A stretch of DNA of 64,000 nucleotides, from NCBI GenBank assembly GCA_031425015.1, contig JANPIM010000013.1, forward strand, positions 120,939 through 184,938, written 5' to 3'. This document shows positions 31,350-52,875 of the stretch, piece by piece (position 1 is the first letter of the stretch; each line of letters begins with the position of its first letter). The position numbers were made by a program, and so were the translations under genes. The notes below the pieces were generated by a model that ran no database searches, was not told where the DNA came from, and saw only the letters and a list, made by a program, of their open reading frames with translations. Source of the DNA: Segetibacter sp. GTDB lineage: Bacteria; Bacteroidota; Bacteroidia; Chitinophagales; Chitinophagaceae.

Positions 31350-31390
31350 TAAACTTCAAACCCTAAACCCTAAACCCCAACCCCAAACTC
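31350..31390 (-). repeat. Degenerate heptamer array after the ALDH stop
   Basis: aaactt caaaccc taaaccc taaaccc caacccc aaactc. Confidence 0.7.
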
Positions 31391-32849
31391 ACAACTCCAC
31401 ACACACATTCTTTGCTTCCGTAAAAAACCGCAGCGCTTCCCAACCGCCTTCACGGCCAACGCCGCTGTTTTTTGTGCCGCCAAAAGGTGTACGCAAATCC
31501 CGAACAAGCCAACAGTTCACCCAGATGATTCCTGCTTCCACTTTCGCTGCTACACGGTTGGCCCTGCCAATGTCTTGCGACCAAATCGTAGCCGCTAATC
31601 CGTAATGGCAGGCATTGGCTAATTGCAATGCTTCCGCTTCAGTTGTAAATGATTGTAGCGTAACAACCGGTCCAAATATTTCATCCATGTTGGTGCTGCA
31701 GTCAGGCCCCAATCCTTCTATAATCGTTGGCTTAATAAACAATCCGTTAGCACAACGACCTTCTAATTTTACTGCTTTTCCACCAGTCAATATTGTTCCG
31801 CCTTCCTGCTTTGCCACTTCTATGCAGTTTATTACTTTATCGAAATGCAGCTTACTCACAACTGCTCCTTGTTTTGAAGTTTCATCCATTGGATCACCGA
31901 CCGTAAGCTCCCTTGTTCGTGCTACAAACTCAGCTTTAAATTTTTCGTAAATACTTTCTTCCACCAGTATTCTACTACCGCATAAACAGATTTGTCCCTG
32001 GTTGCTAAAAGATGATCGCAAGGTTGCTTCCATCATTTTGTTCCAATCGCAATCAGCAAAAATGATGTTGGGATTTTTTCCACCCAACTCCAATGATAAC
32101 TTCTTAAACTTTGGTGCAGCAATGGACGCAATGCGCTCACCTGCACGTGTACTTCCCGTAAAAGAAATGGCTTTTATTGCCGGATGCGAAACAATTACTT
32201 CGCCCACGCCTGGCCCGGTTCCATGAACGATGTTCAATACGCCATCCGGCAAGCCTGCTTCTTTGCAAATCTTTGCGAGTAGATAAGCCGTGACCGGCGT
32301 TACTTCCGAAGGTTTTGCAACCACGCAATTACCGGCTGCCAAAGCCGGCGCTATCTTCCATGTAAAAAGGTATAAGGGTAAATTCCACGGCGAGATACAT
32401 CCAACAATACCAATCGGCTGGCGTAACGTATAGTTGATCGCCTTGTCTTCCATGTGGTGACTCTCTGTACTAAAGTGCATAATACCCGTTGCAAAAAACC
32501 GGAAGTTGGCAGATGCTCTTGGTATGTCAACACGTTTACTCAGCCATAGTGGTTTGCCATTGTCAGTTGTTTCGGCTATCGCTAACGCATCTAAGTTTTC
32601 ATCGATCAGTTCTGCAATCTTATTCAAAATCTTAAACCGCTCTTCAGCCGCCATCACTGACCAAACAGGGAAAGCTTGCTTAGCTGCGTTCACGGCCAGC
32701 TCTACATCTTTCTCATTGCTGTCAGGTGTATTAGAAAAAACTTCACCCGTCGCTGGATTAATGTTCTCCAAATACTTTCCACTCAGCGGCCCAATTAAAT
32801 TGCCACCTATGTAGTTCTCGAGGTAGAATGGAATAGAGAGGGATGGCAT
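31389..32849 (-). CDS. Aldehyde dehydrogenase, likely 2-aminomuconate-6-semialdehyde dehydrogenase (NbaE/AmnC/ALDH8A1-like)
   Basis: SPWNLPLYLFTWKIAPALAAGN, FTGST..G, LELGGKNP, FSNQGQICLCGSRI, DEIFGPV; adjacent to nbaC/nbaD. Confidence 0.88.
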   Translation of the reverse strand: MPSLSIPFYLENYIGGNLIGPLSGKYLENINPATGEVFSNTPDSNEKDVELAVNAAKQAFPVWSVMAAEERFKILNKIAELIDENLDALAIAETTDNGKPLWLSKRVDIPRASANFRFFATGIMHFSTESHHMEDKAINYTLRQPIGIVGCISPWNLPLYLFTWKIAPALAAGNCVVAKPSEVTPVTAYLLAKICKEAGLPDGVLNIVHGTGPGVGEVIVSHPAIKAISFTGSTRAGERIASIAAPKFKKLSLELGGKNPNIIFADCDWNKMMEATLRSSFSNQGQICLCGSRILVEESIYEKFKAEFVARTRELTVGDPMDETSKQGAVVSKLHFDKVINCIEVAKQEGGTILTGGKAVKLEGRCANGLFIKPTIIEGLGPDCSTNMDEIFGPVVTLQSFTTEAEALQLANACHYGLAATIWSQDIGRANRVAAKVEAGIIWVNCWLVRDLRTPFGGTKNSGVGREGGWEALRFFTEAKNVCVEL

Positions 32850-33000
32850 GTTTGAAGTTTGAAGTTTGAGGTTTGAAGAAAGATGTTTCTAGTATCTAGT
32901 TTAAGGTTCGAGGTTATTTCTGTAGAAAGCGACAGCAGGTAAATATTTAAATCAATGTTTGTGCTTGTCAACTTCAAACTTTAAACATCAAACTTCAAAC
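32850..33000. repeat. Inverted heptamer arrays (GTTTGAA vs TTCAAAC) bracketing about 90 nt between SDR and ALDH
   Basis: tttgaagtttgaagtttgaggtttgaag (32851-32878) ... cttcaaactttaaacatcaaacttcaaac (32972-33000). Confidence 0.8.
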
Positions 33001-33004
33001 GGCG

Positions 33005-33790
33005 TTAAATGCTTCCTGTCCTCCCACCATCCACCGCTATACTTACGCCATTAACATAAGCCGCTGCCGGCGATGCTAGGAATGCGGCAACGGTAGCAAT
33101 TTCTTCCGCTTCAGCAAAGCGTTTTGCTGGTATCTCATGCATCATTTCTTCTTCAACCTTATCTATCGTTTGCTGCTTCTTATTTGCGTTGTTCGATATA
33201 ATGGTTTCTAATCTTTTTGTCTTGGTAGCGCCCGGTAACACATTGTTGACCGTTATGCCAAACTGTGCCAATTCATTACTCATAGTTTTAGCCCATGAAG
33301 CCACCGCTCCACGAATGGTGTTGGATACGCCCAGGTTTTTCAAGGGTATCTTTACTGAAGTAGATACAACGTTAATGATCCTTCCAAAACCAGCTTCTTT
33401 CATGAACGGGATAACTGCCTTTGCAAGGATATGATTGCAAATAAGATGTTGATTGAAGGCAGCAATAAAGTCTTCCTCTTTTGCTTCCACAATCGGTCCC
33501 GCAGCAGGGCCACCTGTATTATTCACCAGTATATGCACTGCATGGTTTTCTGCATGCGCTTCAATGGCTGCTTTCACTTCATCGGGCTTAGAAAAATCGG
33601 CTACCAGCATCTGGTGGTTTTGCATTAGAGAGGTGTCTAGATGAAGCAATGCTTCTTCCAGCGATTGTTGATTGCGCGCCATTAAGGTGCAACTGGCACC
33701 CATTAATGCAAGCTCTTGTGCAATGGCTAATCCGATACCTTGTGTACTGCCACAAACAACTGCATTTCTGCCTTCAAGTGATAAGTTCAT
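33005..33790 (-). CDS. Short-chain dehydrogenase/reductase (SDR) of unknown substrate, cotranscribed with ALDH
   Basis: CGSTQGIG (TGxxxGxG-like), NNTGGP, atypical active-site segment SNTIRGAV in place of YxxxK, NNVLPG.T.T.R. Confidence 0.85.
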   Translation of the reverse strand: MNLSLEGRNAVVCGSTQGIGLAIAQELALMGASCTLMARNQQSLEEALLHLDTSLMQNHQMLVADFSKPDEVKAAIEAHAENHAVHILVNNTGGPAAGPIVEAKEEDFIAAFNQHLICNHILAKAVIPFMKEAGFGRIINVVSTSVKIPLKNLGVSNTIRGAVASWAKTMSNELAQFGITVNNVLPGATKTKRLETIISNNANKKQQTIDKVEEEMMHEIPAKRFAEAEEIATVAAFLASPAAAYVNGVSIAVDGGRTGSI

Positions 33791-33797
33791 ATACCCT

Positions 33798-33805
33798 CAA
33801 ACTTA
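33798..33805 (-). promoter_or_regulatory. -7 promoter element immediately upstream of the SDR ATG (possibly leaderless mRNA)
   Basis: TAAGTTTG on the minus strand, 7 nt before the ATG at 33790. Confidence 0.55.
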
Positions 33806-33869
33806 GTCAGATTTGCTGTAATTTGGCCAGGTTTCCATGTCATAACATCTTCACCTAAAACATTTGCAC

Positions 33870-34403
33870 ATGCCAGTAGCTTCCCCATTTAACCTAAAGG
33901 GTTGGATAAATGAACATCGTAATCTTTTAAAACCACCGGTTGGTAATCAATGCGTTTATAAGGATGCAGAAAATTTTATAGTGATGGTTGTGGGCGGCCC
34001 GAATGCACGCAAAGATTATCACTACAATGAAAGTGAAGAATTGTACTACCAGGTAGAGGGAAATATTGTGTTGAAGATTATTGATGAGGGTACGCCACGT
34101 GATATTCCCATCAACGAAGGCGACATGTTTTTACTTCCGCCACAAACGCCACACTCACCCCAGCGCCCAGCAAATACCGTTGGCTTAGTCATAGAAAAAA
34201 AACGTGAAGACGAGGAAAATGAGAAAGATGCATTCATGTGGTTCTGCGAAAATTGCGGCAATAAGTTGTACGAAGAATTTGCTTTCGTCAGCGATATTGT
34301 ACAACAGCTTCCGCCTATAATGGAGAAGTTTTATTCGAATGAATCATTGCGGACTTGTGATAAGTGCGGGGTGGTGATGGAGCCTCCAATTAAAAAAGAT
34401 TAG
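33870..34403 (+). CDS. nbaC: 3-hydroxyanthranilate 3,4-dioxygenase
   Basis: LLKPPVGN, VVGGPNARKDYH.NE.EE, PHSPQR, WFCENC...CDKCG (rubredoxin-like site). Confidence 0.96.
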   Translation: MPVASPFNLKGWINEHRNLLKPPVGNQCVYKDAENFIVMVVGGPNARKDYHYNESEELYYQVEGNIVLKIIDEGTPRDIPINEGDMFLLPPQTPHSPQRPANTVGLVIEKKREDEENEKDAFMWFCENCGNKLYEEFAFVSDIVQQLPPIMEKFYSNESLRTCDKCGVVMEPPIKKD

Positions 34404-34862
34404 AACGCAGATTTTTATGATTGTGATGATTAAAATGATTTTATGGACACTTATTTACACTCTGATATCACATCGTTAATAATAAAAGGGTTCTATACAG
34501 TTTATAATAGACTTGGTTATGGTTTTCTTGAAAAGGTTTATGAAAATGCGCTGCTATTTGAACTTAGAAAACAGGGATTAGTTTGTCAACCACAGCTGCA
34601 GGTCAAAGTTTTTTATGATGAGGTTCAAGTTGGTTATTACGTAGCTGATATGATAGTTAATGACAAAGTTATTGTAGAAATTAAAGCCGCTGAAGCTTTA
34701 TGTGAAGAACATGAAGCACAGCTTGTGAATTATTTGAGAGCAACAAATATAGACGTAGGAATACTTTTGAATTTCGGTAAGAAAGCAGAGCTGAAAAGAA
34801 AGGTGTTCTCATCTTAATTCAAAAATCATAACGCATCATCAGAATCATAAAAATCTGCGTTC
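34403..34862. mobile_element. Putative inverted-repeat-bounded GxxExxY cassette inserted between nbaC and nbaD
   Basis: GAACGCAGATTTTTATGATTGTGATGAT (34403-34430) vs ATCATCAGAATCATAAAAATCTGCGTTC (34835-34862), 27/28 complementary. Mobility is inferred, not shown. Confidence 0.55.
34443..34817 (+). CDS. GxxExxY protein (PD-(D/E)XK-like)
   Basis: LGYGFLEKVYENAL (GxxExxY), ADMIVNDKVIVEIKA, QLVNYL, GILLNFG. Confidence 0.92.
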   Translation: MDTYLHSDITSLIIKGFYTVYNRLGYGFLEKVYENALLFELRKQGLVCQPQLQVKVFYDEVQVGYYVADMIVNDKVIVEIKAAEALCEEHEAQLVNYLRATNIDVGILLNFGKKAELKRKVFSS

Positions 34863-34872
34863 CAATACAATA

Positions 34873-35859
34873 ATGAAAATCGACATCCACACCCACATCA
34901 TGCCGGAGCATATGCCTAACTGGACAAGAAAGTTTGGCTACGGCGAGTTTATTCATTTGGAGCATCGCAACTGCGAGGCTTGCATGATGAAAGGTGATAA
35001 GCTATTTCGGGTAGTGGAACCGAATTGTTTTAAAGCTGAGGTGCGGATAAAAGACATGGACGAAACAGAGGTATCCATGCAGGTGCTTTCAACTATCCCG
35101 GTGCTTTTTAATTATTGGGCGAATGCAAATGATGGACATGAAACGGCGCGTTTTTTAAATGATCACCTTGCTGAAGAAGTTTATAAGGCACCCGATCGCT
35201 TCATAGGTATTGGCACAGTTCCGTTACAGGATATTGATTTGTCGATAAAAGAAATGGAGCGGTGTATGCACGAATTGAAAATGCCTGGTCTGGAAATTGG
35301 CTCCAACATCAACGGCAAAAATCTAAGCGATCCATCTTTCTTTCCTTTTTATGAAGCTGCAGAAAAAATGGGATGCGCCTTATTTGTTCATCCGTGGGAA
35401 ATGATGGGAGAGGACCAGATGCAAAAATACTGGCTGCCCTGGTTGGTAGGAATGCCTGCTGAAACTACACGTGCCATCTGCTCAATGATTTTTGGTGGCG
35501 TGTTTGAAAAGTTTTCAAAGTTGCGCGTAGCCTTTGCACACGGTGGCGGATCATTTCCGTATACCCTGGGCCGAATAGAACATGGCTTTGATGTTCGACC
35601 TGATTTGGTAGCCGTTGATAATTCAAACTCGCCGCGCAGTTATCTTGGCAAGTTTTGGGTGGATAGCCTTGTTCACGACCCTAAAACTCTTCATTATTTA
35701 TTGGATGTAATGGGTGATGATAAAGTTTGTCTCGGTAGCGATTACCCTTTTCCTCTGGGGGAGCACCGTCCCGGCAAATTGATCCAGGAAATGAACATCG
35801 GGCAACAGGTGAAAGAAAAATTATGGTATCAAAATGCGAAGAATTGGCTGGGCTTATAA
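34873..35859 (+). CDS. nbaD: 2-amino-3-carboxymuconate-6-semialdehyde decarboxylase (ACMSD, amidohydrolase 2 family)
   Basis: IDIHTH, FVHPW.MMG, WLPWLVGMPAET, AHGGGSFP..LGR..HG, LGSDYPFPLGE. Confidence 0.93.
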   Translation: MKIDIHTHIMPEHMPNWTRKFGYGEFIHLEHRNCEACMMKGDKLFRVVEPNCFKAEVRIKDMDETEVSMQVLSTIPVLFNYWANANDGHETARFLNDHLAEEVYKAPDRFIGIGTVPLQDIDLSIKEMERCMHELKMPGLEIGSNINGKNLSDPSFFPFYEAAEKMGCALFVHPWEMMGEDQMQKYWLPWLVGMPAETTRAICSMIFGGVFEKFSKLRVAFAHGGGSFPYTLGRIEHGFDVRPDLVAVDNSNSPRSYLGKFWVDSLVHDPKTLHYLLDVMGDDKVCLGSDYPFPLGEHRPGKLIQEMNIGQQVKEKLWYQNAKNWLGL

Positions 35860-35866
35860 ACATTTC

Positions 35867-36748
35867 TTACCTCTGAATTAAATTTGGATAATCCGTAATT
35901 ATTCCGTCCACCCCCATACGAATGAGCGCTTTTATTTTCTTCTTTTCGTTTACAGTCCAGGGGATGATTTTGATATTATATAAATGGCATTGCTCAACCA
36001 CTTGCCTGTTAACAAGTGAATAATGAGGGCTAACCGTAGTGGGTATAAATCGTAATTCTTTTATGATGTCTTTAATCGGTTTGATCGTCTCGCCCTCTAT
36101 TAAAAAGGCCAATGCAATTGCGGGAAACTTTTTGTTCAGATACTGTAGTGGTCTCTTGTCAAACGACTGAAGCGTTGTTCTTCGTTCCACTTTTTCGTCT
36201 TTAATTACCTTCATCAATAGGTCAACAAATTCGCCTGGTTTCGGGTGAAAAAGATCATCTGTAGCGGGGTTGGTTTTAATTTCAATATTGTACTGAAGGG
36301 TCTTGTTGTGTTTGGTTGCCCTAAAAACATCGATCAGTGTTGGTTTGCTTGCGGGTACTTTTTTCTGCTCAGGAAAACGTGGATGTGATTTTTGCCCTAC
36401 ATCAAATATGCTAACCTCACTGTAGTTCATTCGGTAAATATTAAACTTCAACTCGTTTTCCTTCGACACAAATTCACCCGATTGCAAGGTTGTTATTTCG
36501 TGGCTAAAATAAGGTTCATGACTCACCAGCACTTGCTGATCAGCGGTTATCACTACATCCATCTCCAAGGTATTTACGCCTAGATCAATAGCCTTCAACA
36601 TGGCAGGTATCGTATTCTCCGGAAGTAAGCCACGGCAGCCGCGGTGGCCTTGCCAATCAATTTTTTTTGTTTTGCCGAAGGTTGTTTTCAATGCTTTACA
36701 GGATAACAATGGAAGTGTAACTACAGAAAGCAGCAGGAGTGTTTTCAT
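35867..36748 (-). CDS. Glycerophosphodiester phosphodiesterase, lipoprotein
   Basis: Lipobox LLS-C; QGHRGCRGLLPENT, LEMDV, NIEIK, LQSFD, WTVN, DGIITDYP. Confidence 0.9.
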   Translation of the reverse strand: MKTLLLLSVVTLPLLSCKALKTTFGKTKKIDWQGHRGCRGLLPENTIPAMLKAIDLGVNTLEMDVVITADQQVLVSHEPYFSHEITTLQSGEFVSKENELKFNIYRMNYSEVSIFDVGQKSHPRFPEQKKVPASKPTLIDVFRATKHNKTLQYNIEIKTNPATDDLFHPKPGEFVDLLMKVIKDEKVERRTTLQSFDKRPLQYLNKKFPAIALAFLIEGETIKPIKDIIKELRFIPTTVSPHYSLVNRQVVEQCHLYNIKIIPWTVNEKKKIKALIRMGVDGIITDYPNLIQR

Positions 36749-36752
36749 GTGG

Positions 36753-38000
36753 TTATGTTTTTTCCTCCCACACCTGCACCAAATTCACCATTACTTCTAC
36801 TGCTTTTTCCATGTCTTTTACACCGATCCATTCTTTCTTACTATGGATGCCTTGCATGCCGGTAAAAAGGTTGGGGCAAGGCAGGCCCATAAAGCTTAGC
36901 CGGCTGCCATCTGTACCACCGCGGATGCTTTGTTTGCGCACCGTTACACCGCTTCTTCGGTAAGCTTCTTCAGCATGTGAAACAACCTGCGGATGTTGGT
37001 CCAGCATCTCTTTCATGTTTCTATATTGCTCAGTTACTTTAAACTCCATCCGCGCCTTGTTATGTTGTTGCAATATTTTCTCTGCTATATTTTGCAAGCG
37101 TTCTGCGTTTGCTTTCAACCCTTCTCTTGAAAAATCTCTTACGATGAATTCAATGGTTGCTTTTTCCGCATTGCCTTCTATGCGTAGTGGGTGAACAAAG
37201 CCGTCACGGTTTTCTGTTGTTTCCGGACTGAATTCTTTGGTGGGTAATGCAGTCAGTATCTCACCTGCAATTTTTAAGGCATTTACCAGGTGGCCTTTGG
37301 CATAGCCGGGATGTGCACTCACACCATGTACAGTGATCGTAGCGCCATCAGCACTAAAGGTTTCATCTTCGAGGGTGCCTTGTTCGCCACCATCCAAGGT
37401 ATAGCCAAAATCGGCACCGAGCTTTTGCATATCCAGCTTTGCCACGCCACGTCCTACTTCTTCATCGGGGGTGAAAAGGATTTTGATGGTACCGTGTTTT
37501 ACCTCTGGATGTGACATGATGTAATTCGCCATATCCATTATTTCGGCTACGCCTGCTTTATCATCCGAGCCCAATAAAGTATTGCCACTTGCCGTGATGA
37601 TGGTATTTCCAATGTGTTCGTTCAAGTAAGCAAAATCTTTTGATGAAAGCACCTGGGTTGTATCGTCAGGCAGCACAATGTCTTCGCCCGTATAATTTTT
37701 GTGAATGATGGGTTGAACGTTGGTGCCGCTGCAATCGGGTGCGGTATCCACATGGCTGCAAAAACAAATCACCGGTACTTTCTTTTCGCTGTTGGAAGGT
37801 ATGGATGCATAAACATAGCCATACGCGTCCGTATGCGCATCGGCTATACCCATTGCCAGTAATTCTTCTGCTAAAATTTTACTTAGATCTTTTTGTTTTT
37901 CGGTAGAAGGAGTGGCCGGATTTTGGGGATTGCTTTGCGTGTCTACCTGCACGTAACGCACAAATCTTTCTGCACAGGTAAAATTGTATGGCTGTAACAT
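36753..38000 (-). CDS. pepT: Peptidase T (M20B tripeptide aminopeptidase)
   Basis: SHVDTAPD, LLGSDDKAG, FTPDEEVGRG, TLDGG, ETFSAD, IRGGTDGSRLSFMGLPCPNLFTG. Confidence 0.96.
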   Translation of the reverse strand: MLQPYNFTCAERFVRYVQVDTQSNPQNPATPSTEKQKDLSKILAEELLAMGIADAHTDAYGYVYASIPSNSEKKVPVICFCSHVDTAPDCSGTNVQPIIHKNYTGEDIVLPDDTTQVLSSKDFAYLNEHIGNTIITASGNTLLGSDDKAGVAEIMDMANYIMSHPEVKHGTIKILFTPDEEVGRGVAKLDMQKLGADFGYTLDGGEQGTLEDETFSADGATITVHGVSAHPGYAKGHLVNALKIAGEILTALPTKEFSPETTENRDGFVHPLRIEGNAEKATIEFIVRDFSREGLKANAERLQNIAEKILQQHNKARMEFKVTEQYRNMKEMLDQHPQVVSHAEEAYRRSGVTVRKQSIRGGTDGSRLSFMGLPCPNLFTGMQGIHSKKEWIGVKDMEKAVEVMVNLVQVWEEKT

Positions 38001-38060
38001 ATCGTTTAATTTGTCGGCAAATTAGTCATTAGCCTTACACTGAGCAAAACCCATCAAACC

Positions 38061-38903
38061 ATGAAATCGGCAGCAATCAAACAAGGGTGGCTTCGAGCCC
38101 TCATCTATTTTCTTTTATTTATTGCCCTTGCCCTCACCTTACAACAGCCTGTTACCAATGCCGCATCCATGATCACCAAAGACCCTCAGCAGCACTTTAT
38201 GGTTTCATACAGTTTAATGGCGACAGTGTTTATTTTATTTACCTGGTTAAGTAAGCTGTTTTTGGATCGTGAATCGTTTATGGAATTGGGGTTTAGGTGG
38301 AACGGATACCAGGCAGATGCAGGCCTTGGTTTTTTTACTGCTGTTTCACTGATGGGAATGGGAACACTGATTCTATTGACCACAAAAAAGATTACGATCA
38401 CAGGCACTGCCTTCGATCCGGCTGCACTCAGTTTGCAATTATTGCTGATGGTTGTAGTTGCCCTTAGCGAGGAAATTGTTTTTCGCGGGTATCTATTATA
38501 CAACCTGATGGCCAGTTTAAATAAATGGGTTGCCTTGTCGATTTCTGCTATTTTATTTGCACTGGTTCACGGAGCTAACCCAGGCATCTCTGCAGTTCCA
38601 TTGGCCAACATTGTACTTGCAGGATTTTTGTTGGGCATCAACTTTATGTATACACGCAATATTTGGTTTGGCGTAATGCTTCACCTTGCCTGGAACTATT
38701 TGCAAGGCCCTGTTCTGGGCTACCAGGTTAGCGGTATAGAAACGCAAAGTGTGCTCACGCAATATGTAACCGGTAGCGACTTGTGGACCGGTGGAAAATT
38801 TGGTTTTGAAGGATCGTTGATCTGCACCATTTTGTTAGCCGCTGCAATATTGATTTGGACATATCTTTTTGCACAAAAATATCCGACGGCAACGACTATT
38901 TAA
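38061..38903 (+). CDS. CPBP-family intramembrane glutamic endopeptidase
   Basis: SEEIVFRGY, LFALVH, LHLAWN motifs; multiple TM helices. Confidence 0.88.
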   Translation: MKSAAIKQGWLRALIYFLLFIALALTLQQPVTNAASMITKDPQQHFMVSYSLMATVFILFTWLSKLFLDRESFMELGFRWNGYQADAGLGFFTAVSLMGMGTLILLTTKKITITGTAFDPAALSLQLLLMVVVALSEEIVFRGYLLYNLMASLNKWVALSISAILFALVHGANPGISAVPLANIVLAGFLLGINFMYTRNIWFGVMLHLAWNYLQGPVLGYQVSGIETQSVLTQYVTGSDLWTGGKFGFEGSLICTILLAAAILIWTYLFAQKYPTATTI

Positions 38904-38971
38904 GTGTTTGTACACAAGGATTGTTTAAGTACACACTTCTACATATATTTCATCAACCAAAAACCCTAACG

Positions 38972-39529
38972 ATGAAAAGAATACTTGTCGGCGCCCTTGT
39001 TGGTGCTATTTTAATGTTTGCGTGGCAGGCTGTTGCGCACATGTTTTTTGTATACCACCACGTGAATGTTCAGCAGGCTCCAAACAGCTCGGCCATTTTA
39101 GCATTACTGTCTTCGAGCATAAAAGAAGATGGACAATATTTTTTACCTGACATGAATGTGAATGCTACCGCAGCGGAGCAAGAAGAAATAGGAAAAAACA
39201 TGGAAGGTAAGCCATGGGCATTTGTCACTTATCATACTGCATGGAAATCGGACATGGCCATGCCTATGATCCGGCAAGTTGCAACCATGTTTTTAGTATT
39301 GGCATTTTTCATTTGGGTGCTGGGTAAATCGCCGGGTAGTTATGGTACAGTACTGGCAAAATCATTGGTTACCGGCTTCATTATTTTTTTGGCAGCGTGG
39401 TATCCGCAAAATATTTGGTGGCATATGCCATGGCCTGTACTTCAAGCCGAGTTATACGATTTAATTGCCGGTTGGGGCTTGGTGGGTCTTTGGTTGGGAT
39501 GGTGGCTGAATAGGAGGAGCGTGAAGTAG
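38972..39529 (+). CDS. Hypothetical membrane protein
   Basis: Likely start MKRILVGAL at 38972; about 4 hydrophobic segments; no family recognised. Confidence 0.7.
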   Translation: MKRILVGALVGAILMFAWQAVAHMFFVYHHVNVQQAPNSSAILALLSSSIKEDGQYFLPDMNVNATAAEQEEIGKNMEGKPWAFVTYHTAWKSDMAMPMIRQVATMFLVLAFFIWVLGKSPGSYGTVLAKSLVTGFIIFLAAWYPQNIWWHMPWPVLQAELYDLIAGWGLVGLWLGWWLNRRSVK

Positions 39530-39540
39530 GTTTGATGTTG

Positions 39541-39812
39541 AAGTCAAAAGTCAAAAAGCAAAAAGCAAAAAGCAAAAATAAAATCAGAATAGAGAAAGTA
39601 ATGTTGCTTTTTCGCTTTGAAAGAAGCTACATAGTAGCACAACTGCTGAACGGAATGCGACGCAAGGATGCTTAACCTGGGCACTAAAGTTTGTACCAAA
39701 ATTTTAGCATAGATCAGGATAATAAAAAAAGTCAAAAGTCAAATTAGAGGCTGACCTCTTTTTTGACTTTTGACTTTTGACTTTTGATTTTTGCTTTTTG
39801 CTTTTTTACTTG
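39541..39812. repeat. Heptamer arrays (AAGTCAA/AAGCAAA and complements) plus one REP-like copy between convergent genes
   Basis: aagtcaaaagtcaaaaagcaaaaagcaaaa (39541-); aaagtcaaaagtcaaa-ttagaggctgacctc-ttttttgacttttgacttttgac (39725-39782); REP core GAATGCGACGCAAGGATGC at 39653-39671. Confidence 0.8.
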
Positions 39813-39814
39813 AT

Positions 39815-45640: not shown

Positions 45641-45759
45641 AAAAGATAAATTAATGTTTCAAAAATATTCATCTTTACTAACAACAGTTGCAATCGTTTC
45701 AGCAGTCTGCTTTTGATCAAGCCGCCGCTAATGGTTCAATGTTGAAAATCAGTTTGCCC

Positions 45760-46176
45760 ATGAGTAATATTATTAAAACCGACGCCGCTGCCAAGCCGCT
45801 TGGCGCTTATCCGCATGCAAGGAAAGTGGGCAATCTTTTATTCTTGTCCGGCATTGGTTCGCGCAGCGCTAGCGATAATACCATCCCGGGCTTACAACAA
45901 GATGCAGATGGGACTATCACGGCTTACGATATAGAAGCTGAATGTCATTCAGTATTTGCCAACGTAAAAGCCGTGCTGGAAGCAAGTGGCAGCAGTTGGG
46001 AAAATATGGTTGATGTAACGGTGTTCCTTACCAACATGAAAAAAGATTTTCCTATTTACAACAGGGTGTATGGCGAGTACTTTAAACACGTAGAAGCCTG
46101 CCGTACAACCGTAGAAGTAAAAAGCCTGCCTACACCCATTGCCATCGAACTAAAAGTGATTGCAACGCTTAATTAA
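45760..46176 (+). CDS. RidA/YjgF family protein, likely 2-aminomuconate deaminase
   Basis: PLGAYPHA.KVG..LFLSG, VDVTVFL..M..DF, RTTVEV..LP.PIAIELK; first gene before kynU-kmo; likely start ATG 45760. Confidence 0.82.
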   Translation: MSNIIKTDAAAKPLGAYPHARKVGNLLFLSGIGSRSASDNTIPGLQQDADGTITAYDIEAECHSVFANVKAVLEASGSSWENMVDVTVFLTNMKKDFPIYNRVYGEYFKHVEACRTTVEVKSLPTPIAIELKVIATLN

Positions 46177-46214
46177 TTTTCTGTTTCCCAAGGGCGAAAG
46201 CCAAACAATCTTCC

Positions 46215-47483
46215 ATGCAAAACACATTAAAATACGCCCAACAACAAGACCAGAACGATAGATTGAAAGAGTTTAGAAGTAAGTTTTTCATTCCGCAGGT
46301 AAATGGTAAAGAGGCAGTTTACTTTACCGGAAACTCTTTAGGACTTCAACCTAAAACAACGAAATCATACATTAACCAGGAGCTGGATGATTGGGCAAGC
46401 CTGGGGGTAGAAGGACATGTGCATGCGCAAAATCCATGGGTCAGTTACCATGAAGCATTTCCTGCTATCTTGTCCAAAATTGTTGGGTGCCTACCAGGGG
46501 AAGTAGTAGCTATGAATCAATTAACCGTGAACCTTCACCTGTTAATGGTCTCATTTTACCGACCTACCAAAGAACGATACAAAATCATTTGCGAGGCAAA
46601 GGCATTTCCTTCTGATCAGTATGCTTTTCAATCCCAGGCTACTTTTCATGGGTTCGATTTCAATGATGCAATTGTTGAAGTGTTCCCCCGCGATGGAGAA
46701 CATTCCATTCGCCACGAAGATATTCTTGCCACCATAGAAACGCACAAAGATCAACTTGCGCTCGTACTTTTTGGCGGCGTCAATTATTACACGGGCCAGG
46801 TATTCAACATGCAATCCATCACAAAAGCTGCGCACGATGCTGGCGCTATCGCGGGGTTCGATCTTGCCCATGCCGCGGGAAATATTCCGATGCAATTGCA
46901 CGATTGGGATGTTGATTTTGCCTGCTGGTGTTCGTATAAATATTTAAATAGTGGACCCGGTGGAGTTGCTGGAATTTTCATTCATCAAAAGCATACAAGC
47001 AATACCTCGTTGCCGCGCTTTGCCGGCTGGTGGGGACATGATAAAGCGAACCGGTTTAAAATGGGGCAGGACTTTAACCCGATACCAACTGCTGAAGGCT
47101 GGCAACTTAGCAATGCGCCCATCTTGCTGATGGCTGTACACAAAGCATCGCTCGATATTTTTGAAGAAGCAGGCTTTGCAAATCTTGTTGCTAAAAGCAA
47201 ACAATTGACGGGTTATTTGTTGTTTGTATTGGATGAAATAAATAAGTTGATGAATCAACCCATCATTGAAGTAATCACACCAAAAAATGAAGACGAAAGA
47301 GGTTGCCAGGTAAGTATGCTTATGTTGGAACATGGCCGCGAATTTTTTGATGAATTGATACAGCATGGTATAATTGCCGACTGGCGCGAACCTAATGTTA
47401 TCCGTGTAGCGCCGGCACCTTTGTACAACTCGTTTGAGGACGTGTGGCGCTTTGGAGAAGTGGTCAGGACTATTTTGAAATGA
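46215..47483 (+). CDS. kynU: Kynureninase
   Basis: YFTGNSLGLQP, MNQLTVNLH, AFPSDQY, DLAHAAGN, WCSYKYLNSGPG, GWWGH, DWREPNVIR. Confidence 0.97.
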   Translation: MQNTLKYAQQQDQNDRLKEFRSKFFIPQVNGKEAVYFTGNSLGLQPKTTKSYINQELDDWASLGVEGHVHAQNPWVSYHEAFPAILSKIVGCLPGEVVAMNQLTVNLHLLMVSFYRPTKERYKIICEAKAFPSDQYAFQSQATFHGFDFNDAIVEVFPRDGEHSIRHEDILATIETHKDQLALVLFGGVNYYTGQVFNMQSITKAAHDAGAIAGFDLAHAAGNIPMQLHDWDVDFACWCSYKYLNSGPGGVAGIFIHQKHTSNTSLPRFAGWWGHDKANRFKMGQDFNPIPTAEGWQLSNAPILLMAVHKASLDIFEEAGFANLVAKSKQLTGYLLFVLDEINKLMNQPIIEVITPKNEDERGCQVSMLMLEHGREFFDELIQHGIIADWREPNVIRVAPAPLYNSFEDVWRFGEVVRTILK

Positions 47484-47501
47484 AACGGAACGTAAAATGG
47501 T

Positions 47502-47597
47502 ACGCAAATTTTTATGGTTGTTATGATTTGTTATGGATTATGTGGAATTCGTAAAAAAGATCAGTATTCATCCTTTCAGTCATAAAAATCTGCGTTC
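47502..47597. repeat. Gene-less copy of the GxxExxY inverted-repeat bracket between kynU and kmo
   Basis: Left ACGCAAATTTTTATGGTT (47502-47519) pairs with right AGTCATAAAAATCTGCGT (47578-47595). TCATAAAAATCTGCGTTC (47580-47597) is identical to 34845-34862. Confidence 0.8.
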
Positions 47598-47610
47598 AAA
47601 AATTTAGAAC

Positions 47611-48954
47611 ATGACGGAAAAGAGAATTGTAATAATCGGCGCCGGACTTGTTGGTTCGTTGCTCGGAATTTATCTTTCTAAGCGCGGACACCAGGTAAAA
47701 ATATTTGAGCGCCGTGCCGATATGCGTCAAGAAATAGTGAAGGCAGGCAGGTCTATCAACCTCGCATTAAGTGATCGCGGTCTGAAGGCATTGCGAGAAG
47801 TTGGAATAGCCGACGACTTAATGGAGATTGCTATTCCCATGCCCGGCAGAATGATTCATAACCTGAATGGCGCTAGTGTGTTTCAGGCATATGGTAAAGA
47901 AGGGCAGGCCATCAATTCTGTTTCGCGTGGTGAGTTGAATAAGAAACTAATGGACCTGGCAGAAGCCAATAATGTAGAAATCATTTTCAATAAAAAATGT
48001 GCTTCCATCAATTGGGATAAACGCGAAATTGCTTTTGACGACACCACTACGCTCAACCAGGAGTTTGAATACCCTGATGTGATATTTGCAGCTGATGGAG
48101 CATATTCAGCGGGACGATTGCAGCACATGACCACGCATCCAATGTTTGACTACCAACAGTTTTACATTGATTGCGGCTACAAAGAATTATCGATTCCCGC
48201 AGGGGAAGGCGGAAGTTTTCTGTTGGACAAAAACGCTTTGCATATCTGGCCGCGTAAAGATTATATGCTAATCGCGTTGCCTAATACTGATGGAAGTTTT
48301 ACAGGCACTTTATTCTTTCCGTATCACGGCGAAACGTCATTTGAAAAACTGGATACACCACAAAAAGTACACACATTTTTCTCTTCAGATTTTCCTGATA
48401 TCATGCAACTCATTCCAAACGTGACGGAACAGTTTTTTGAGAACCCCACATCGCCATTGGTGACGGTGAAATGTTTTCCCTGGGTACGTGATGATCGATT
48501 CGCTTTAATCGGTGACGCGGCTCATGCCATTGTTCCTTTTTTCGGACAAGGCATGAATGCCGGTTTTGAAGATTGTTCTGTGTTGAATGAATTGATGGAT
48601 AAACATGGGGATGATTGGGCTGCATTGTTACAAGATTTTCAAACCATGAGAAAACCGGATGCAGATGCCATTGCAGACCTGGCAGTAAACAACTTTATCG
48701 AAATGCGCGAAAAGACAGCGGATCCAATTTTCCTGCTTCAAAAAAAGATAGAAGCACGCCTGCATGAACGCCATCCGAATAAATGGATACCAGCTTATTC
48801 GCAGGTAACGTTCTCGCCACACATCCGTTATTCTGAAGCATTATTGAGAGGACAACGTCAGGAAGCAATTATGCAAACAGTGATGAGCATAGACGGCATT
48901 GCAGAAAAGTGGGACAGTGAGGAAATTGAGAATCGTATTCTTGAGCAGCTCTAA
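47611..48954 (+). CDS. kmo: Kynurenine 3-monooxygenase
   Basis: GAGLVG, GRSINLALSDRG, GYKEL.IP, ALHIWPR, IALPN.DGSFT, GDAAHAIVPFFGQGMNAGFED. Confidence 0.95.
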   Translation: MTEKRIVIIGAGLVGSLLGIYLSKRGHQVKIFERRADMRQEIVKAGRSINLALSDRGLKALREVGIADDLMEIAIPMPGRMIHNLNGASVFQAYGKEGQAINSVSRGELNKKLMDLAEANNVEIIFNKKCASINWDKREIAFDDTTTLNQEFEYPDVIFAADGAYSAGRLQHMTTHPMFDYQQFYIDCGYKELSIPAGEGGSFLLDKNALHIWPRKDYMLIALPNTDGSFTGTLFFPYHGETSFEKLDTPQKVHTFFSSDFPDIMQLIPNVTEQFFENPTSPLVTVKCFPWVRDDRFALIGDAAHAIVPFFGQGMNAGFEDCSVLNELMDKHGDDWAALLQDFQTMRKPDADAIADLAVNNFIEMREKTADPIFLLQKKIEARLHERHPNKWIPAYSQVTFSPHIRYSEALLRGQRQEAIMQTVMSIDGIAEKWDSEEIENRILEQL

Positions 48955-49188
48955 AAGAGAAAATGGAGGCTTATAAGTGCGGTTTCAATAACTAATTTTA
49001 TAGTTTTCGCTAAAATAATCAGGTCATTTTGTTTTGCTTTATAAGTCTTTGAAATAGAGTGCTGGCGGGCTTTTTTCGCTGAGGCACCCCGGTATTCAAT
49101 CGATTTTGTTTTGGCCCGGCTACAGGTTTTTGATATAAGATGCATCAGAAGGCATCATACCTAAGATAAATTCCCGAAATTTGCTTTT

Positions 49189-49473
49189 ATGGAAAAGTTT
49201 CAAATGTTTGAAGAATGGTTGAAGGCAAAGCATCAACTTAACTGGCGTGAAAATATCATTCACATCACCGCCATTGATAAAGTGCTAATGGTGCCCAACT
49301 TTGAAAAGATTGCTTCGGCATCTATTCTCAATCAAATGATGAGTGCATTAAAGAAAAATGTTTCTTTCGCCTCTAAACCTAAAACAGAACGTGACAAAGA
49401 ACTAAAGTCTTTAAAACTGTACATTCAGTTTATCGAGGAAGAAAAAGTGCTAAAGAACTCTTCTGCTTCGTAA
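49189..49473 (+). CDS. Small hypothetical protein (94 aa)
   Basis: AT-rich ORF between kmo and pyrF; all-helical appearance; no family confidently recognised. Confidence 0.55.
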   Translation: MEKFQMFEEWLKAKHQLNWRENIIHITAIDKVLMVPNFEKIASASILNQMMSALKKNVSFASKPKTERDKELKSLKLYIQFIEEEKVLKNSSAS

Positions 49474-49591
49474 ATATTCCCGTCATGTGATTTTCTTTCT
49501 CCCCAATTTCCTACAACAACAGACAACGATTTTCCTGCATTTCCCAATGTAGGGCCATGCATAATCCGTTTGCAAAAACTATTCTGTATCT

Positions 49592-50434
49592 ATGAATCGT
49601 GTGCAGCTCATTCAGCAAATATTTGACAAGAAAAGCTATCTATGTGTTGGCTTGGATACCGATCCGCAGAAACTTCCATTTCACTTACAGGGAAGAGAGG
49701 ATGGTGTGCTGGCGTTCAATAAACGGATGATTGATGCAACTAAGGACTACTGTGTTAGCTATAAACTGAACACAGCATTCTATGAGGCAATGGGCATACA
49801 AGGATGGGAGATACTACAAGAAACGGTTGACTATATTCCTTCTACACACCTTACCATAGCTGATGCTAAGCGCGGCGATATTGGTAATACATCGGCTCAA
49901 TACGCAAAAACCTTTTTCGAGGTATATGGATTTGATGCTGTAACGGTAGCGCCCTACATGGGTGAGGACAGCATTCGTCCGTTCCTGGATTATGCAGATA
50001 AGTCCACTATTGTGTTGGGGCTTACCTCCAACAAAGGCAGCGAAGATTTTGAACAACTGAAAGTTTCAAGCGATCCATCCAGCGGACAAAATGCTTTGCA
50101 TCAACAGCCTTTTCTATACGAAAAAGTGATGGAAAAAGTTGCTGGTTGGGGAACGCCCAATAACCTGATGTTTGTAGTTGGAGCAACTAAAACAGAACAA
50201 CTTGAGCAACTACGTAAATCATTTCCCGAACACTTTTTCTTAGTGCCTGGCGTAGGGGCGCAGGGCGGAAGTTTGGAAGAAGTTTCTCGTGCGGCAATGA
50301 ACCACGAAGCAGGTTTGTTGGTAAATGCAAGTAGGGCGATCATTTATGCATCAACAGGGGAAGATTTTGCAGAAGCCGCTGCCACAGTAGCCAGCGAATA
50401 CGCTAAAGAGATGAGTAAATATTTTTTGAAGTGA
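49592..50434 (+). CDS. pyrF: Orotidine-5'-phosphate decarboxylase
   Basis: LCVGLD, YKLNTAFYE, IADAKRGDIGNT, LTSN.GS.DF, VVGAT, LVPGVGAQGG, VNASRAII. Confidence 0.97.
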   Translation: MNRVQLIQQIFDKKSYLCVGLDTDPQKLPFHLQGREDGVLAFNKRMIDATKDYCVSYKLNTAFYEAMGIQGWEILQETVDYIPSTHLTIADAKRGDIGNTSAQYAKTFFEVYGFDAVTVAPYMGEDSIRPFLDYADKSTIVLGLTSNKGSEDFEQLKVSSDPSSGQNALHQQPFLYEKVMEKVAGWGTPNNLMFVVGATKTEQLEQLRKSFPEHFFLVPGVGAQGGSLEEVSRAAMNHEAGLLVNASRAIIYASTGEDFAEAAATVASEYAKEMSKYFLK

Positions 50435-50441
50435 GGAAACT

Positions 50442-51050
50442 CTACATACCTGTGCTAAAAACTTGAACCAGGCGATCTGCCCATCTTTCATATTCTTTCG
50501 CAGACGGATGAAGTTTGTCTGCAGCCAGTAAACTGGCATCATTTGCAACTTCGCGGGTTCCGGGTGTAATGTCAATGTAGGGGCACCTGTACTTTTCAGC
50601 AATCCGTTTATTAATTGCGTTGAAGGCATCAATCTCCTTCGTAATCTCCTTTTTATTTTTCCCTGCGGCAAACGGTGTACAACCCCAATCAGGAATGGAC
50701 AGTACAGCAACGTTTGATGGTTTTTCAGCGGCGAAGTGGATGGCTTTTTTCAGCAAGAACCCAAAATCATTTTCGTAATCTGCAGCGGCCAAACCGCGGT
50801 ATTGATTGTTTACACCAATCAACAGCGACACAAAATCGTAGTGCTGATTCAATACATTGTGAATGAGGTGTTCAGCAAGTTCAGTGGTGGTCCAACCTGT
50901 TTTTGCCACAATTTCTGGCGCATGAATAGTATGTCCTGTTTGTCTCAGGTTTTGCACTGCCTGGTAGGGGAAGCTTTCATAAATTGGAAGACTTTCGCCA
51001 ATAGTATAGGAGTCGCCAAGCGCAAGGTAAGAGTAGAGATGCTTTGACAT
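50442..51050 (-). CDS. SGNH/GDSL hydrolase
   Basis: ALGDSYT, GWTT, LIGVNN, DKLHPS. Confidence 0.9.
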   Translation of the reverse strand: MSKHLYSYLALGDSYTIGESLPIYESFPYQAVQNLRQTGHTIHAPEIVAKTGWTTTELAEHLIHNVLNQHYDFVSLLIGVNNQYRGLAAADYENDFGFLLKKAIHFAAEKPSNVAVLSIPDWGCTPFAAGKNKKEITKEIDAFNAINKRIAEKYRCPYIDITPGTREVANDASLLAADKLHPSAKEYERWADRLVQVFSTGM

Positions 51051-51060
51051 GGAGTTCAGC

Positions 51061-51112
51061 GTGTTGAATAGTTGATTTGTTCAATGGTTGAAAGGTTGAA
51101 AAGTTGATTGGC
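51061..51112 (-). repeat. Degenerate 8-mer array before the SGNH start
   Basis: + strand gttgaatagttgatttgttcaatggttgaaaggttgaaaagttgattgg, i.e. TCAACnnn on the sense strand. Confidence 0.7.
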
Positions 51113-51151
51113 AGATCCGAGGCGAGCCAGGGTATCATTCATCACAAGCCA

Positions 51152-51580
51152 TTATTTAAAAACAGCATTCTTCGCTGTCCACCACGGATGAATTTCGTAT
51201 CCTAAACGACCGGCAACAATGGCCGGGTCTGTTTTCAATAGCTCTACTACTTCTTCTTTTGTTTCCGCATCGAATATAAAAACGCCGCGCCAATTACCAT
51301 CGTCACCAAAAGGTCCTGCTACCACAATTTTACCTTCTTTAGCAAGGCGGTTCAGGTTATCCATATGCCCTTGCTGAATTTTATTGATAATAGCAGTGTC
51401 GGTAATTTCACCACGCCTGTTTCCTTTGGTAAGCATTACAAAGAAGTATTGCTTCATGGTGTACTCGCCTGCCTTAAATTCTTTCACCGGTTTTTTGACC
51501 ATGGCGTCTTTGGTGGCAGGTGTTTGGGCAGAGGAAATAGCTGTTACAAACAGTACAAGAAGGAATGTTATTGTTTTCAT
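51152..51580 (-). CDS. YciI-family protein with signal peptide
   Basis: Likely start MKTITFLL (51580); HMDNL..L..EGK...AGPF, G.FIF, DPAI..G. Confidence 0.8.
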   Translation of the reverse strand: MKTITFLLVLFVTAISSAQTPATKDAMVKKPVKEFKAGEYTMKQYFFVMLTKGNRRGEITDTAIINKIQQGHMDNLNRLAKEGKIVVAGPFGDDGNWRGVFIFDAETKEEVVELLKTDPAIVAGRLGYEIHPWWTAKNAVFK

Positions 51581-51690
51581 GTTGAATTGTATTTGCATAA
51601 GAAAAATACAACAATTCGTTGGTGTGACGAGGCGGCGGGTTATTTTTACCGCCATATTAAAAAGACTAAATCTTTATAAAACAAAACGAG

Positions 51691-52875
51691 ATGGCTGCCA
51701 GAACTGATTTATTTCAATCCCCCGATTACTACCTGCTTGACGAATTGCTTACAGAAGAACAACGCATGGTGCGTGATACCGTACGCAATTATGTAAAAAA
51801 GGAAATCTCTCCGATTATTGAAGATTATGCACAGCGGGCTGAGTTTCCTCAGCAGATTGTTAAGCAGATGGGTGACATTGGTGTGTTTGGACCTACAGTG
51901 CCGGTAGCGTATGGCGGTGGCGGCATGGATTACATTAGTTATGGATTGATGATGCAAGAGTTAGAACGTGGCGATAGTGGAGTACGTAGTACAGCTTCGG
52001 TACAAGGTTCATTGGTGATGTACCCAATTTTTGCTTATGGTAGCGAAGAACAAAAAATGAAGTATTTGCCAAAACTGGGTAGTGGCGAATGGCTGGGTTG
52101 TTTTGGATTGACCGAGCCCGATCATGGAAGCAATCCTTCAGGAATGCTGAGCAACATTAAAGATGCAGGCGATCATTATATTTTAAACGGCGCAAAAATG
52201 TGGATCAGCAATGCACCTTATGCGCAGGTAGCGGTTGTATGGGCGAAAGATGAAGCAGGAGATATACGCGGAATGGTGGTTGAACGAGGGTGGGAAGGTT
52301 TTAGTACACCCACAACCCACGGCAAATGGAGTCTTCGAGCTAGTGCTACCGGAGAGCTTGTATTTGATAATGTGAAAGTGCCAAAGGAGAATGTTTTTCC
52401 AAATGTAAAAGGTTTGAAAGGGCCATTGGGATGTTTGAGTAAGGCACGCTATGGAATTTCCTGGGGAGCACTCGGTGCGGCAATGGACTGCTACGATACT
52501 GCTTTACGTTATAGCAAAGAGCGCATTCAGTTCGATCGGCCAATCGGGGGGTTTCAACTGCAACAGAAAAAATTGGCAGAGATGATTACAGAAATCACCA
52601 AGGCACAACTGATGGTTTGGCGCTTAGGCGTTTTGATGAATGAAGGAAGGGCAACACCCGCGCAAATCTCAATGGCAAAAAGAAATAGTTGTGAGATAGC
52701 CGCCAATATTGCCCGCGATGCCAGGCAGATGTTGGGCGGCATGGGCATAACAGGGGAGTACAGTATTATGCGCCACATGATGAATTTGGAAAGTGTAATT
52801 ACTTATGAGGGAACGCATGATGTTCACCTGCTGATCACAGGTATGGATGTAACCGGATTGAATGCTTTTAAATAG
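51691..52875 (+). CDS. gcdH: Glutaryl-CoA dehydrogenase (acyl-CoA dehydrogenase family)
   Basis: ELERGDSGVRSTASVQGSLVMYPI, CFGLTEPDHGSNP, GKWSLRASATG, ARYGISWG, ESVITYEGTHDVH. Confidence 0.88.
   Translation: MAARTDLFQSPDYYLLDELLTEEQRMVRDTVRNYVKKEISPIIEDYAQRAEFPQQIVKQMGDIGVFGPTVPVAYGGGGMDYISYGLMMQELERGDSGVRSTASVQGSLVMYPIFAYGSEEQKMKYLPKLGSGEWLGCFGLTEPDHGSNPSGMLSNIKDAGDHYILNGAKMWISNAPYAQVAVVWAKDEAGDIRGMVVERGWEGFSTPTTHGKWSLRASATGELVFDNVKVPKENVFPNVKGLKGPLGCLSKARYGISWGALGAAMDCYDTALRYSKERIQFDRPIGGFQLQQKKLAEMITEITKAQLMVWRLGVLMNEGRATPAQISMAKRNSCEIAANIARDARQMLGGMGITGEYSIMRHMMNLESVITYEGTHDVHLLITGMDVTGLNAFK

Follow-up and report, generated by a model that had tools for sequence, protein, structure and literature searches.

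We analysed a 64,000-nucleotide stretch of DNA from Segetibacter sp. (assembly GCA_031425015.1, contig JANPIM010000013.1, positions 120,939 to 184,938; hereafter the window), which carries genes of a kynurenine pathway together with a gene for an atypical short-chain dehydrogenase/reductase (SDR; P0001). The best-supported reading, which we hold with slightly better than even confidence on the basis of sequence comparisons, is that the kynurenine pathway encoded in the window is catabolic and animal-like, with a lower end that would not be of the nba/amn type. A RidA-family 2-aminomuconate deaminase (AMD) and the SDR would together form 2-oxoadipate, which would feed glutaryl-CoA dehydrogenase (GcdH). 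To the more specific proposal that the clade of this SDR, with its putative His-Ser-Ser-Arg active site, supplies the missing 2-oxohex-3-enedioate reductase, we give an even chance. It would represent a third, bacterial solution (AMD plus an ene-reducing SDR) beside the routes via 4-oxalocrotonate decarboxylase (4-OD) and via the metazoan ASPDH.

In the proposed route, tryptophan would be opened by TDO, which is encoded outside the window. Kynurenine 3-monooxygenase (KMO), kynureninase (KynU), 3-hydroxyanthranilate 3,4-dioxygenase (HAO, the product of nbaC), ACMSD and 2-aminomuconate-6-semialdehyde dehydrogenase (AMSDH), all assigned by strong homology, would take the product to 2-aminomuconate. 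Homology and gene context suggest that the AmnE-like RidA protein deaminates this compound to 2-oxohex-3-enedioate. The SDR would then use NADPH to deliver a hydride to C4 of this intermediate, and protonation of the enolate would give 2-oxoadipate, as in the reactions of AerF and BacG. Ser143, Ser156 and Arg160 might polarise the 2-oxo-carboxylate end, and His115 could, speculatively, be the proton donor. Finally, the single 2-oxoglutarate dehydrogenase complex of the genome may convert 2-oxoadipate to glutaryl-CoA for oxidation by GcdH.

Active site and predicted structure of the SDR

The SDR (33005..33790, - strand; 261 aa) matches the Pfam families adh_short and adh_short_C2 and keeps the Rossmann motifs G14-S-T-Q-G-I-G20 and N90-N-T-G-G94. 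The classical Tyr-x3-Lys of helix alpha-F and the Asn of helix alpha-E are both missing: S156-N-T-I-R160 takes the place of YxxxK, as the original prediction had anticipated in calling the active site atypical, and His115 replaces Asn. The catalytic Ser, S143, is the sole residue of the canonical Asn-Ser-Tyr-Lys tetrad that is kept. An alignment of 20 orthologues from Bacteroidota, Gammaproteobacteria, one planctomycete and unclassified metagenome-assembled genomes (MAGs) contains 71 invariant positions, including H115, S143, S145, S156, N157, R160, R193 and R224 as well as the Rossmann residues G14, G18, G20, N90, N91, G93 and G94. Within helix alpha-F, all lettered positions of the segment LGVSNT.R.A.ASWAKTMSNEL are invariant across four phyla, and position 119 is either Asn or Ser.

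The AlphaFold model of the SDR has a predicted local distance difference test score (pLDDT) of 89.6. Foldseek places it closest to AerF (6JHA; template modelling (TM) score 0.94), BacG/YwfH (3U4C; TM score 0.91) and SDRs from Burkholderia structural genomics, with 33-34% identity to AerF and BacG, and the corresponding sequence matches have E-values of 2e-37 (AerF) and 2e-31 (BacG). AerF and BacG are the only characterised close relatives of the SDR, and the bond that each of them reduces is a C=C conjugated to a 2-oxo acid. NADPH is the presumed cofactor, judging from the invariant Arg39 after beta-2 and from relatives solved with NADP(H). Relatives retrieved from the ESM Atlas are all bacterial and bear generic SDR names only.

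A paralogous SDR clade with 40-43% identity, represented by six loci in genomes G136, G216, G232, G282, G296 and G300, keeps S-N-x-x-R and carries Leu in place of His115. No homologues of the kynurenine-pathway genes of the window were detected up to about 5 kb from these paralogues. His115 thus appears to mark the kynurenine-linked SDR clade, which would have a tetrad of its own, His-Ser-Ser-Arg.

The pathway genes of the window

The genes lie in two clusters, and the original prediction had placed kmo, kynU, nbaC, ACMSD, an AMSDH-like aldehyde dehydrogenase (ALDH) and RidA correctly, as profile and PDB matches now confirm at or near the predicted positions. Cluster 1 comprises the genes for AMSDH, the SDR, HAO and ACMSD. 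The AMSDH gene (31389..32849, - strand; NbaE/AmnC/ALDH8A1-like) scores 559 bits against Pfam Aldedh, and its seven top distinct PDB sequences are all AMSDH enzymes (4U3W, 7BZV, 4I1W and others; E-values from 1e-127 to 1e-130). nbaC (33864..34403, + strand) matches NF009763 with 254 bits and TIGR03037 with 244 bits, both over the cut-off, as well as Pfam 3-HAO. ACMSD (34873..35859, + strand) matches Pfam Amidohydro_2 and is closer to human ACMSD (4IGM/2WM1; 424 bits, E-value 4.5e-126) than to the Pseudomonas enzyme (2HBV; 233 bits, 3.8e-68).

Cluster 2 (RidA, kynU and kmo) follows at a distance of about 9.8 kb, with unrelated housekeeping genes in between. The gene of the RidA-family AMD (45688..46176, + strand; AmnE/NbaF-like, Pfam Ribonuc_L-PSP) probably starts at Met25, i.e. 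at 45760. Its top PDB match is the 2-aminomuconate deaminase AmnE (6IZH, 4.8e-24), which aligns through an inserted segment common to both proteins and not found in canonical RidA; the next match, PH0854 (1e-19), shows a 12-residue gap there. kynU (46215..47483, + strand) scores 466 bits against TIGR01814 (cut-off 246). The product of kmo (47611..48954, + strand) matches 6LKD (6e-102), 5X68 (8.5e-92) and the Pseudomonas fluorescens enzyme 5FN0 (8e-84), the best match being a mammalian KMO with 345 bits, compared to 285 bits for P. fluorescens. The scores of ACMSD and KMO justify the term "eukaryote-like" of the original prediction at the sequence level, and they would fit an old link between the kynurenine genes of Bacteroidota and animals. 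Downstream of kmo lies pyrF, and gcdH (51691..52875, + strand; PDB 3EOM/3GNC, 5e-132) starts 2,737 nt past the end of kmo, which agrees with the 2.7 kb estimated earlier.

Alternative lower pathways in the genome

The genome assembly, of a Chitinophagaceae bacterium that probably stems from a freshwater-sediment metagenome, comprises 4.9 Mb and is 100% complete, which allowed us to search for other ways of processing 2-aminomuconate. Across the complete genome there was no match to the 4-oxalocrotonate tautomerase family (PF01361) and none to 4-OD (TIGR03218). Three PF01557 proteins were found genome-wide (fuconate/rhamnonate-hydrolase, FAH-like and YcgM-like), none of which is of the MhpD/4-OD type, and the best genome-wide score for the 4-hydroxy-2-oxovalerate aldolase DmpG (TIGR03217) was 82 bits, against a cut-off of 286. 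Based on the lack of tautomerase, decarboxylase/hydratase and aldolase in a complete genome, we ruled out a 4-OD route elsewhere. The reported absence of tautomerase, decarboxylase and hydratase genes from the window was therefore correct and extends to the whole genome, and the complete oxalocrotonate pathway that would have spoken against the original prediction does not occur. An ASPDH-type reductase was likewise ruled out, as there is no match to Asp_DH_C (PF01958) in the genome.

Regarding the steps around this gap, TDO is encoded on another contig of the genome (C41), while KMO, KynU, HAO, ACMSD and AMSDH are encoded in the window. No KynB-type (PF04199) kynurenine formamidase was found in the genome; a formamidase of the alpha/beta-hydrolase type was not searched for. 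A second 2-oxoacid dehydrogenase E1 subunit (DHTKD1-like) was not found in the genome, which has a single SucA (2-oxoglutarate dehydrogenase E1). The genome also encodes the quinolinate synthase NadA, so that the kynurenine pathway is not needed for quinolinate and NAD and is best read as catabolic. On contig C41, TDO is followed by an O-methyltransferase gene (L071:2616-3707).

Co-occurrence of the SDR with pathway genes

The distribution of the SDR was investigated in two genome samples. Among 301 evenly sampled Bacteroidota genomes, 57 carry an SDR orthologue (at least 48% identity, with a clear gap to the paralogues at 40-43%), 71 nbaC and 50 an AMSDH orthologue (at least 54% identity). 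AMSDH and SDR occur together in 48 genomes, AMSDH without SDR in two, SDR without AMSDH in nine, and neither in 242. The SDR is thus present in 48 of the 50 genomes with AMSDH but in only 2 of the 21 that have nbaC and no AMSDH (NAD-type pathway), which indicates that it follows the catabolic branch rather than the entire pathway. SDR and AMSDH covary within at least six families, which lessens, but does not remove, the problem of kinship among the genomes. The second sample consists of 121 gammaproteobacterial genomes from the order of a Kangiellaceae MAG that carries the SDR. All 13 genomes with an AMSDH orthologue also have the SDR, with the two genes no more than about 1.1 kb apart in 12 of them, and only 2 of the remaining 108 genomes have an SDR.

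The 4-OD family shows the opposite distribution. A strong 4-OD/MhpD-family match was found in none of the 61 genomes of the two samples that have both SDR and AMSDH. Four of the 301 Bacteroidota genomes contain this family, and none of these four has SDR and AMSDH together; they include G112, with AMSDH and no SDR, and G054, in which the 4-OD-family gene adjoins nbaC. Nine gammaproteobacterial genomes have strong 4-OD matches; seven of them encode an ALDH of a different clade (41-47% identity), always only a few kb from the genes of the 4-OD family. 4-OD-family genes lie beside nbaC or a different ALDH clade in SDR-less genomes (G054, G081, G352, G368, G418 and others). The co-occurrence of the SDR clade with the pathway, proposed earlier as a check, hence holds in two phyla: the SDR tracks AMSDH and is mutually exclusive with the 4-OD family. 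In addition, a GcdH orthologue (at least 52% identity) is present in 62 of 62 genomes tested, among them all 60 other genomes with SDR and AMSDH.

The genome G112 deserves a separate mention. It is the one Bacteroidota genome of the sample that combines an AMSDH orthologue with a 4-OD-family pair; it has two nbaC copies, lacks the SDR, and has these genes unclustered over three contigs (loci L061, L062 and L072). The neighbours of its ALDH gene gave no further clue.

The same samples bear on the order of deamination and reduction. The SDR might act directly on 2-aminomuconate, as an analogue of ASPDH (2-aminomuconate reductase, AMR), and form 2-aminohex-3-enedioate or, by reductive deamination, 2-oxoadipate, with RidA in a side role. 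Animals do have an NAD(P)H-dependent 2-aminomuconate reductase: according to a preprint of June 2026, human ASPDH reduces 2-aminomuconate to L-2-aminohex-3-enedioate without release of ammonia (bioRxiv 10.64898/2026.06.05.730449). The view of the animal route as an established reduction to 2-oxoadipate, on which the original prediction had drawn, is dated by this result. Moreover, SDR and ALDH form the most conserved two-gene unit, and in Kangiellaceae the pair is adjacent while RidA and nbaC lie about 62 kb away, which fits an enzyme that takes the product of the ALDH. However, an AMD-like RidA is encoded in all 60 other genomes with SDR and AMSDH, usually in the same cluster; 53 of these proteins are close orthologues and seven are diverged, six of the latter being encoded within about 1.5 kb of the ALDH. 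This universal presence favours deamination followed by reduction over a direct reduction of 2-aminomuconate. The top structural relative of RidA is, furthermore, a validated deaminase, so that enzymatic deamination appears to be part of the route, and the characterised relatives of the SDR use 2-oxo acids, not enamines. We therefore regard direct reduction of 2-aminomuconate as improbable.

Gene neighbourhoods of SDR relatives

Close relatives of the SDR (50-71% identity) were found at 54 loci in other genomes. Their neighbours include kynU at 20 loci, AMSDH at 17, HAO at 12, ACMSD at 11, RidA at nine and kmo at eight. The divergent arrangement of SDR and HAO recurs at 12 loci, RidA orthologues stand between ALDH and kynU at nine, and gcdH is near the cluster at three (L005, L007 and L008). 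The fullest gene order in Chitinophagaceae reads Mrp, PaiB-like, (GDPD), ACMSD and HAO in one direction, SDR, ALDH, RidA, kynU and kmo in the other, and then pyrF; in the window, this unit is split in two. The link between SDR and pathway is also found in other surroundings, namely in Pontibacter, in a Cyclobacteriaceae MAG (kmo-kynU-HAO divergent from SDR-ALDH) and in Saprospiraceae (HAO divergent from SDR). Beyond Bacteroidota, it occurs in Kangiellaceae (ispA-dxs-acyl-CoA dehydrogenase-SDR-ALDH) and in a planctomycete Mariniblastus MAG (RidA-ALDH-RadC-ACMSD divergent from SDR).

The prominence of kynU among these neighbours raises the question of whether the SDR has some other function in the kynurenine pathway, either by reducing a 2-oxo acid to the 2-hydroxy acid or by detoxifying enones or quinone-imines derived from kynurenine, 3-hydroxykynurenine or 3-hydroxyanthranilate. 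No gene neighbours the SDR more often than kynU, nine SDR-kynU pairs lack the ALDH, and kynU is kept in 8 of the 11 genomes that have the SDR without AMSDH; in the genomes G204 and G220, the SDR stands together with HAO-kynU(-kmo). Such a role would also explain the retention of the SDR in genomes without ACMSD and AMSDH. On the other hand, 19 of the 21 genomes with nbaC and no AMSDH lack the SDR, which means that a flux of kynurenine is not in itself enough to require it, and three genomes have the SDR and no kynU. An SDR that has lost the catalytic Tyr and Lys is a poor candidate for ordinary carbonyl reduction, and the complementarity with 4-OD is not predicted by a function of this kind. 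We consider it unlikely, although it is the strongest of the competing explanations.

In Chitinophagaceae, the SDR could also be a housekeeping enzyme of a conserved backbone (Mrp-PaiB-like-GDPD-SDR-pyrF) into which kynurenine genes were inserted. In line with this, Pinibacter loci show the order Mrp-FMN_bind_2-GDPD-SDR-pyrF without kynurenine genes. The SDR is present in 14 of the 16 other Chitinophagaceae of the Bacteroidota sample, while nbaC or AMSDH is present in only 9 of the 16, and the divergence rate of the SDR is equal with or without the pathway. Beyond Chitinophagaceae, however, gains and losses of the SDR go along with those of AMSDH in at least five further families, and the pair of SDR and ALDH is found again in a gammaproteobacterial order (13/13) and in a planctomycete with different surroundings. 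A mere backbone neighbour would, in addition, not be expected to exclude the 4-OD family mutually. Taken together, this explanation is very unlikely, and we rank it lowest among those considered.

The PaiB-like gene of this region (FMN_bind_2, PF04299) is conserved at 14 of the 54 loci, either a short way upstream of the cluster or immediately ahead of the SDR (L048:4184-4822; L010, L021, L027, L034, L044, L046, L047 and others). As it is kept where kynurenine genes are absent, it was taken as part of the syntenic backbone.

Observations that weigh against the proposed role

Several observations do not fit a 2-oxohex-3-enedioate reductase dedicated to the lower kynurenine pathway. One of them is the occurrence of the SDR in genomes without the pathway, where it retains all invariant residues and shows the same divergence (62-66% identity). 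With no extra divergence and all invariant residues in place, these SDRs must be under selection for something. Nine of the 57 Bacteroidota genomes with the SDR lack AMSDH; seven of these nine also lack nbaC, and three (G164, G012 and G168) lack kynU as well. Pinibacter soli and Paraflavitalea speifideaquila are examples of species that have the SDR without nbaC. Genome G204 has an HAO-kynU-SDR cluster and no ACMSD anywhere, and at nine loci kynU directly follows the SDR in the absence of the ALDH. A role in the lower pathway can thus not be the sole role of the enzyme, or its retention remains unexplained; a second substrate, or a role beyond the lower pathway, is possible. The earlier proposal, that RidA and the SDR convert 2-aminomuconate to 2-oxoadipate for GcdH, survives every computational refutation test that we ran; it is still qualified by the intact SDRs of genomes without ACMSD and AMSDH.

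The converse case is provided by a high-GC Bacteroidota genome, G117, with a compact kmo-kynU-kynB-ACMSD-HAO-RidA-ALDH cluster (L073, C11:102000-121000) and neither an SDR orthologue nor 4-OD anywhere in the genome. A non-orthologous reductase within this cluster was considered and rejected, the remaining gene in the gap being a KynB-type cyclase. At the mechanistic level, the analogy to AerF and BacG is incomplete, as the SDR lacks their K-x3-Y pair and has H115/N119 instead. Finally, the co-occurrence counts are inflated by related genomes and by possible transfer of the cluster as a unit, and GcdH is too widespread to discriminate between the readings.

Novelty and implications

Since the 1960s, no gene had been assigned to the conversion of 2-aminomuconate to 2-oxoadipate, until ASPDH was assigned to its first metazoan step. 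Fungi use a RidA-family deaminase, and the later fungal steps are left open by the same preprint that describes human ASPDH (bioRxiv 10.64898/2026.06.05.730449). An SDR is syntenic with some Aspergillus 3-hydroxyanthranilate clusters (Martins et al., PMC7842363). Our literature search for a bacterial 2-aminomuconate or 4-oxalocrotonate reductase yielded no paper that assigns this SDR, and the word aminomuconate does not occur in the GapMind and fitness papers. New in this study are the complementarity with 4-OD in two phyla, the presence of AMD and GcdH in all genomes with SDR and AMSDH that were tested, the clade-specific His115, the NadA argument for a catabolic role and the number of genomes in which the SDR is retained although the pathway is missing.

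If the proposed function is correct, the SDR would complete a route from tryptophan to glutaryl-CoA, widespread among Bacteroidota and also encoded in some Gammaproteobacteria and one planctomycete. The generic annotation "SDR / 3-oxoacyl-ACP reductase", borne by the named entries in a list of more than 120 close relatives, would be corrected, and the Tyr-less SDR ene-reductases would gain a third variant of the active site. The enzyme could furthermore serve as a template or probe for finding the fungal enzyme that acts after AMD, and its retention in genomes without the pathway would point to a second 2-oxo-enoate substrate.

Intergenic regions and neighbouring genes

SDR and ALDH lie on the same strand, and the SDR is divergent from nbaC across an intergenic region of 73 nt (33791..33863), which presumably contains a shared promoter region. 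This part of the predicted organisation holds; the cotranscription of SDR and ALDH that was assumed alongside it is putative. The two genes are separated by a 155-nt spacer (32850..33004, - strand) that forms a long-range inverted repeat with GTTTGAAG-like units and has a predicted RNA folding energy of -34.8 kcal/mol (z = -5.4 vs shuffles). In four relatives (L004, L005, L010 and L021) the spacer measures only 18-45 nt. The repeat is probably an inserted repeat element, and it may affect cotranscription.

Between nbaC and ACMSD, the window encodes a GxxExxY/PD-(D/E)XK_3 protein (34443..34817, + strand; TIGR04256, 132 bits; PF13366), which is not a pathway enzyme. Its gene occupies the same position between nbaC and ACMSD at two Chitinophagaceae loci (L007:6683-7051 and L010:6862-7224; 68-74% identity) and is missing from most kynurenine clusters. 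A gene for an SGNH/GDSL hydrolase (50442-51050) lies between pyrF and gcdH.

Comparison with known systems

The closest PDB sequences to the SDR are structural-genomics SDRs from Burkholderia (5VA8/5VPS/5IDX), Thermotoga (TM1169, 1O5I) and Aeropyrum (APE0912, 2Z1N), with E-values from 1e-36 to 2e-40. In the alignments of 5VA8, 5VPS, 5IDX and 1O5I, the same S-N-x-x-R stands in place of YxxxK as in the SDR of the window, while the Burkholderia proteins differ from it in having Asn, not His, at position 115.

AerF of Microcystis aeruginosa (6JH7/6JHA/6JHB) and BacG/YwfH of Bacillus subtilis (3U49/3U4C) are NADPH-dependent C=C reductases of SDR fold that act on dihydro-4-hydroxyphenylpyruvate. 2-Oxohex-3-enedioate belongs to the same class of substrates, being a 2-oxo acid whose C=C bond is conjugated. 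BacG is said, in work by Parker and Walsh in 2012 and by Rajavel et al. in 2013, to act by conjugate hydride addition to dihydro-4-hydroxyphenylpyruvate. Like the SDR, AerF has a Ser at the position of the canonical Tyr, with which S156 aligns, and lacks a Lys where the canonical one would be; where the SDR has Arg160, AerF has Asn. Both known enzymes differ from the SDR by a K-x3-Y pair on helix alpha-E, and K119/Y123 of AerF align with His115/Asn119. We take the corresponding pair in BacG to be K113/Y117, mapped by way of the AerF alignment. AerF and BacG belong to the biosynthesis of secondary metabolites and use a cyclic substrate, whereas the SDR stands in a context of amino-acid catabolism and would act on a linear dicarboxylate.

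The bacterial nba/amn pathways for 3-hydroxyanthranilate and 2-aminophenol, as in P. fluorescens KU-7 (nbaCDEF), Pseudomonas sp. AP-3 (amn) and Burkholderia cenocepacia, have homologues of the HAO, ACMSD, AMSDH and RidA-family 2-aminomuconate deaminase of the window. These routes go on via 4-OD, hydratase, aldolase and acetaldehyde dehydrogenase, while the tautomerase, decarboxylase/hydratase and aldolase families were not found in this genome, and ACMSD and KMO of the window resemble the mammalian enzymes more than those of Pseudomonas. The metazoan kynurenine pathway shares the upper part down to 2-aminomuconate and the presumed destination, 2-oxoadipate and glutaryl-CoA. It differs in that ASPDH/AMR, of which this genome has no homologue, reduces 2-aminomuconate itself without release of ammonia. 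The fungal pathway, like the one proposed here, uses a RidA-family AMD.

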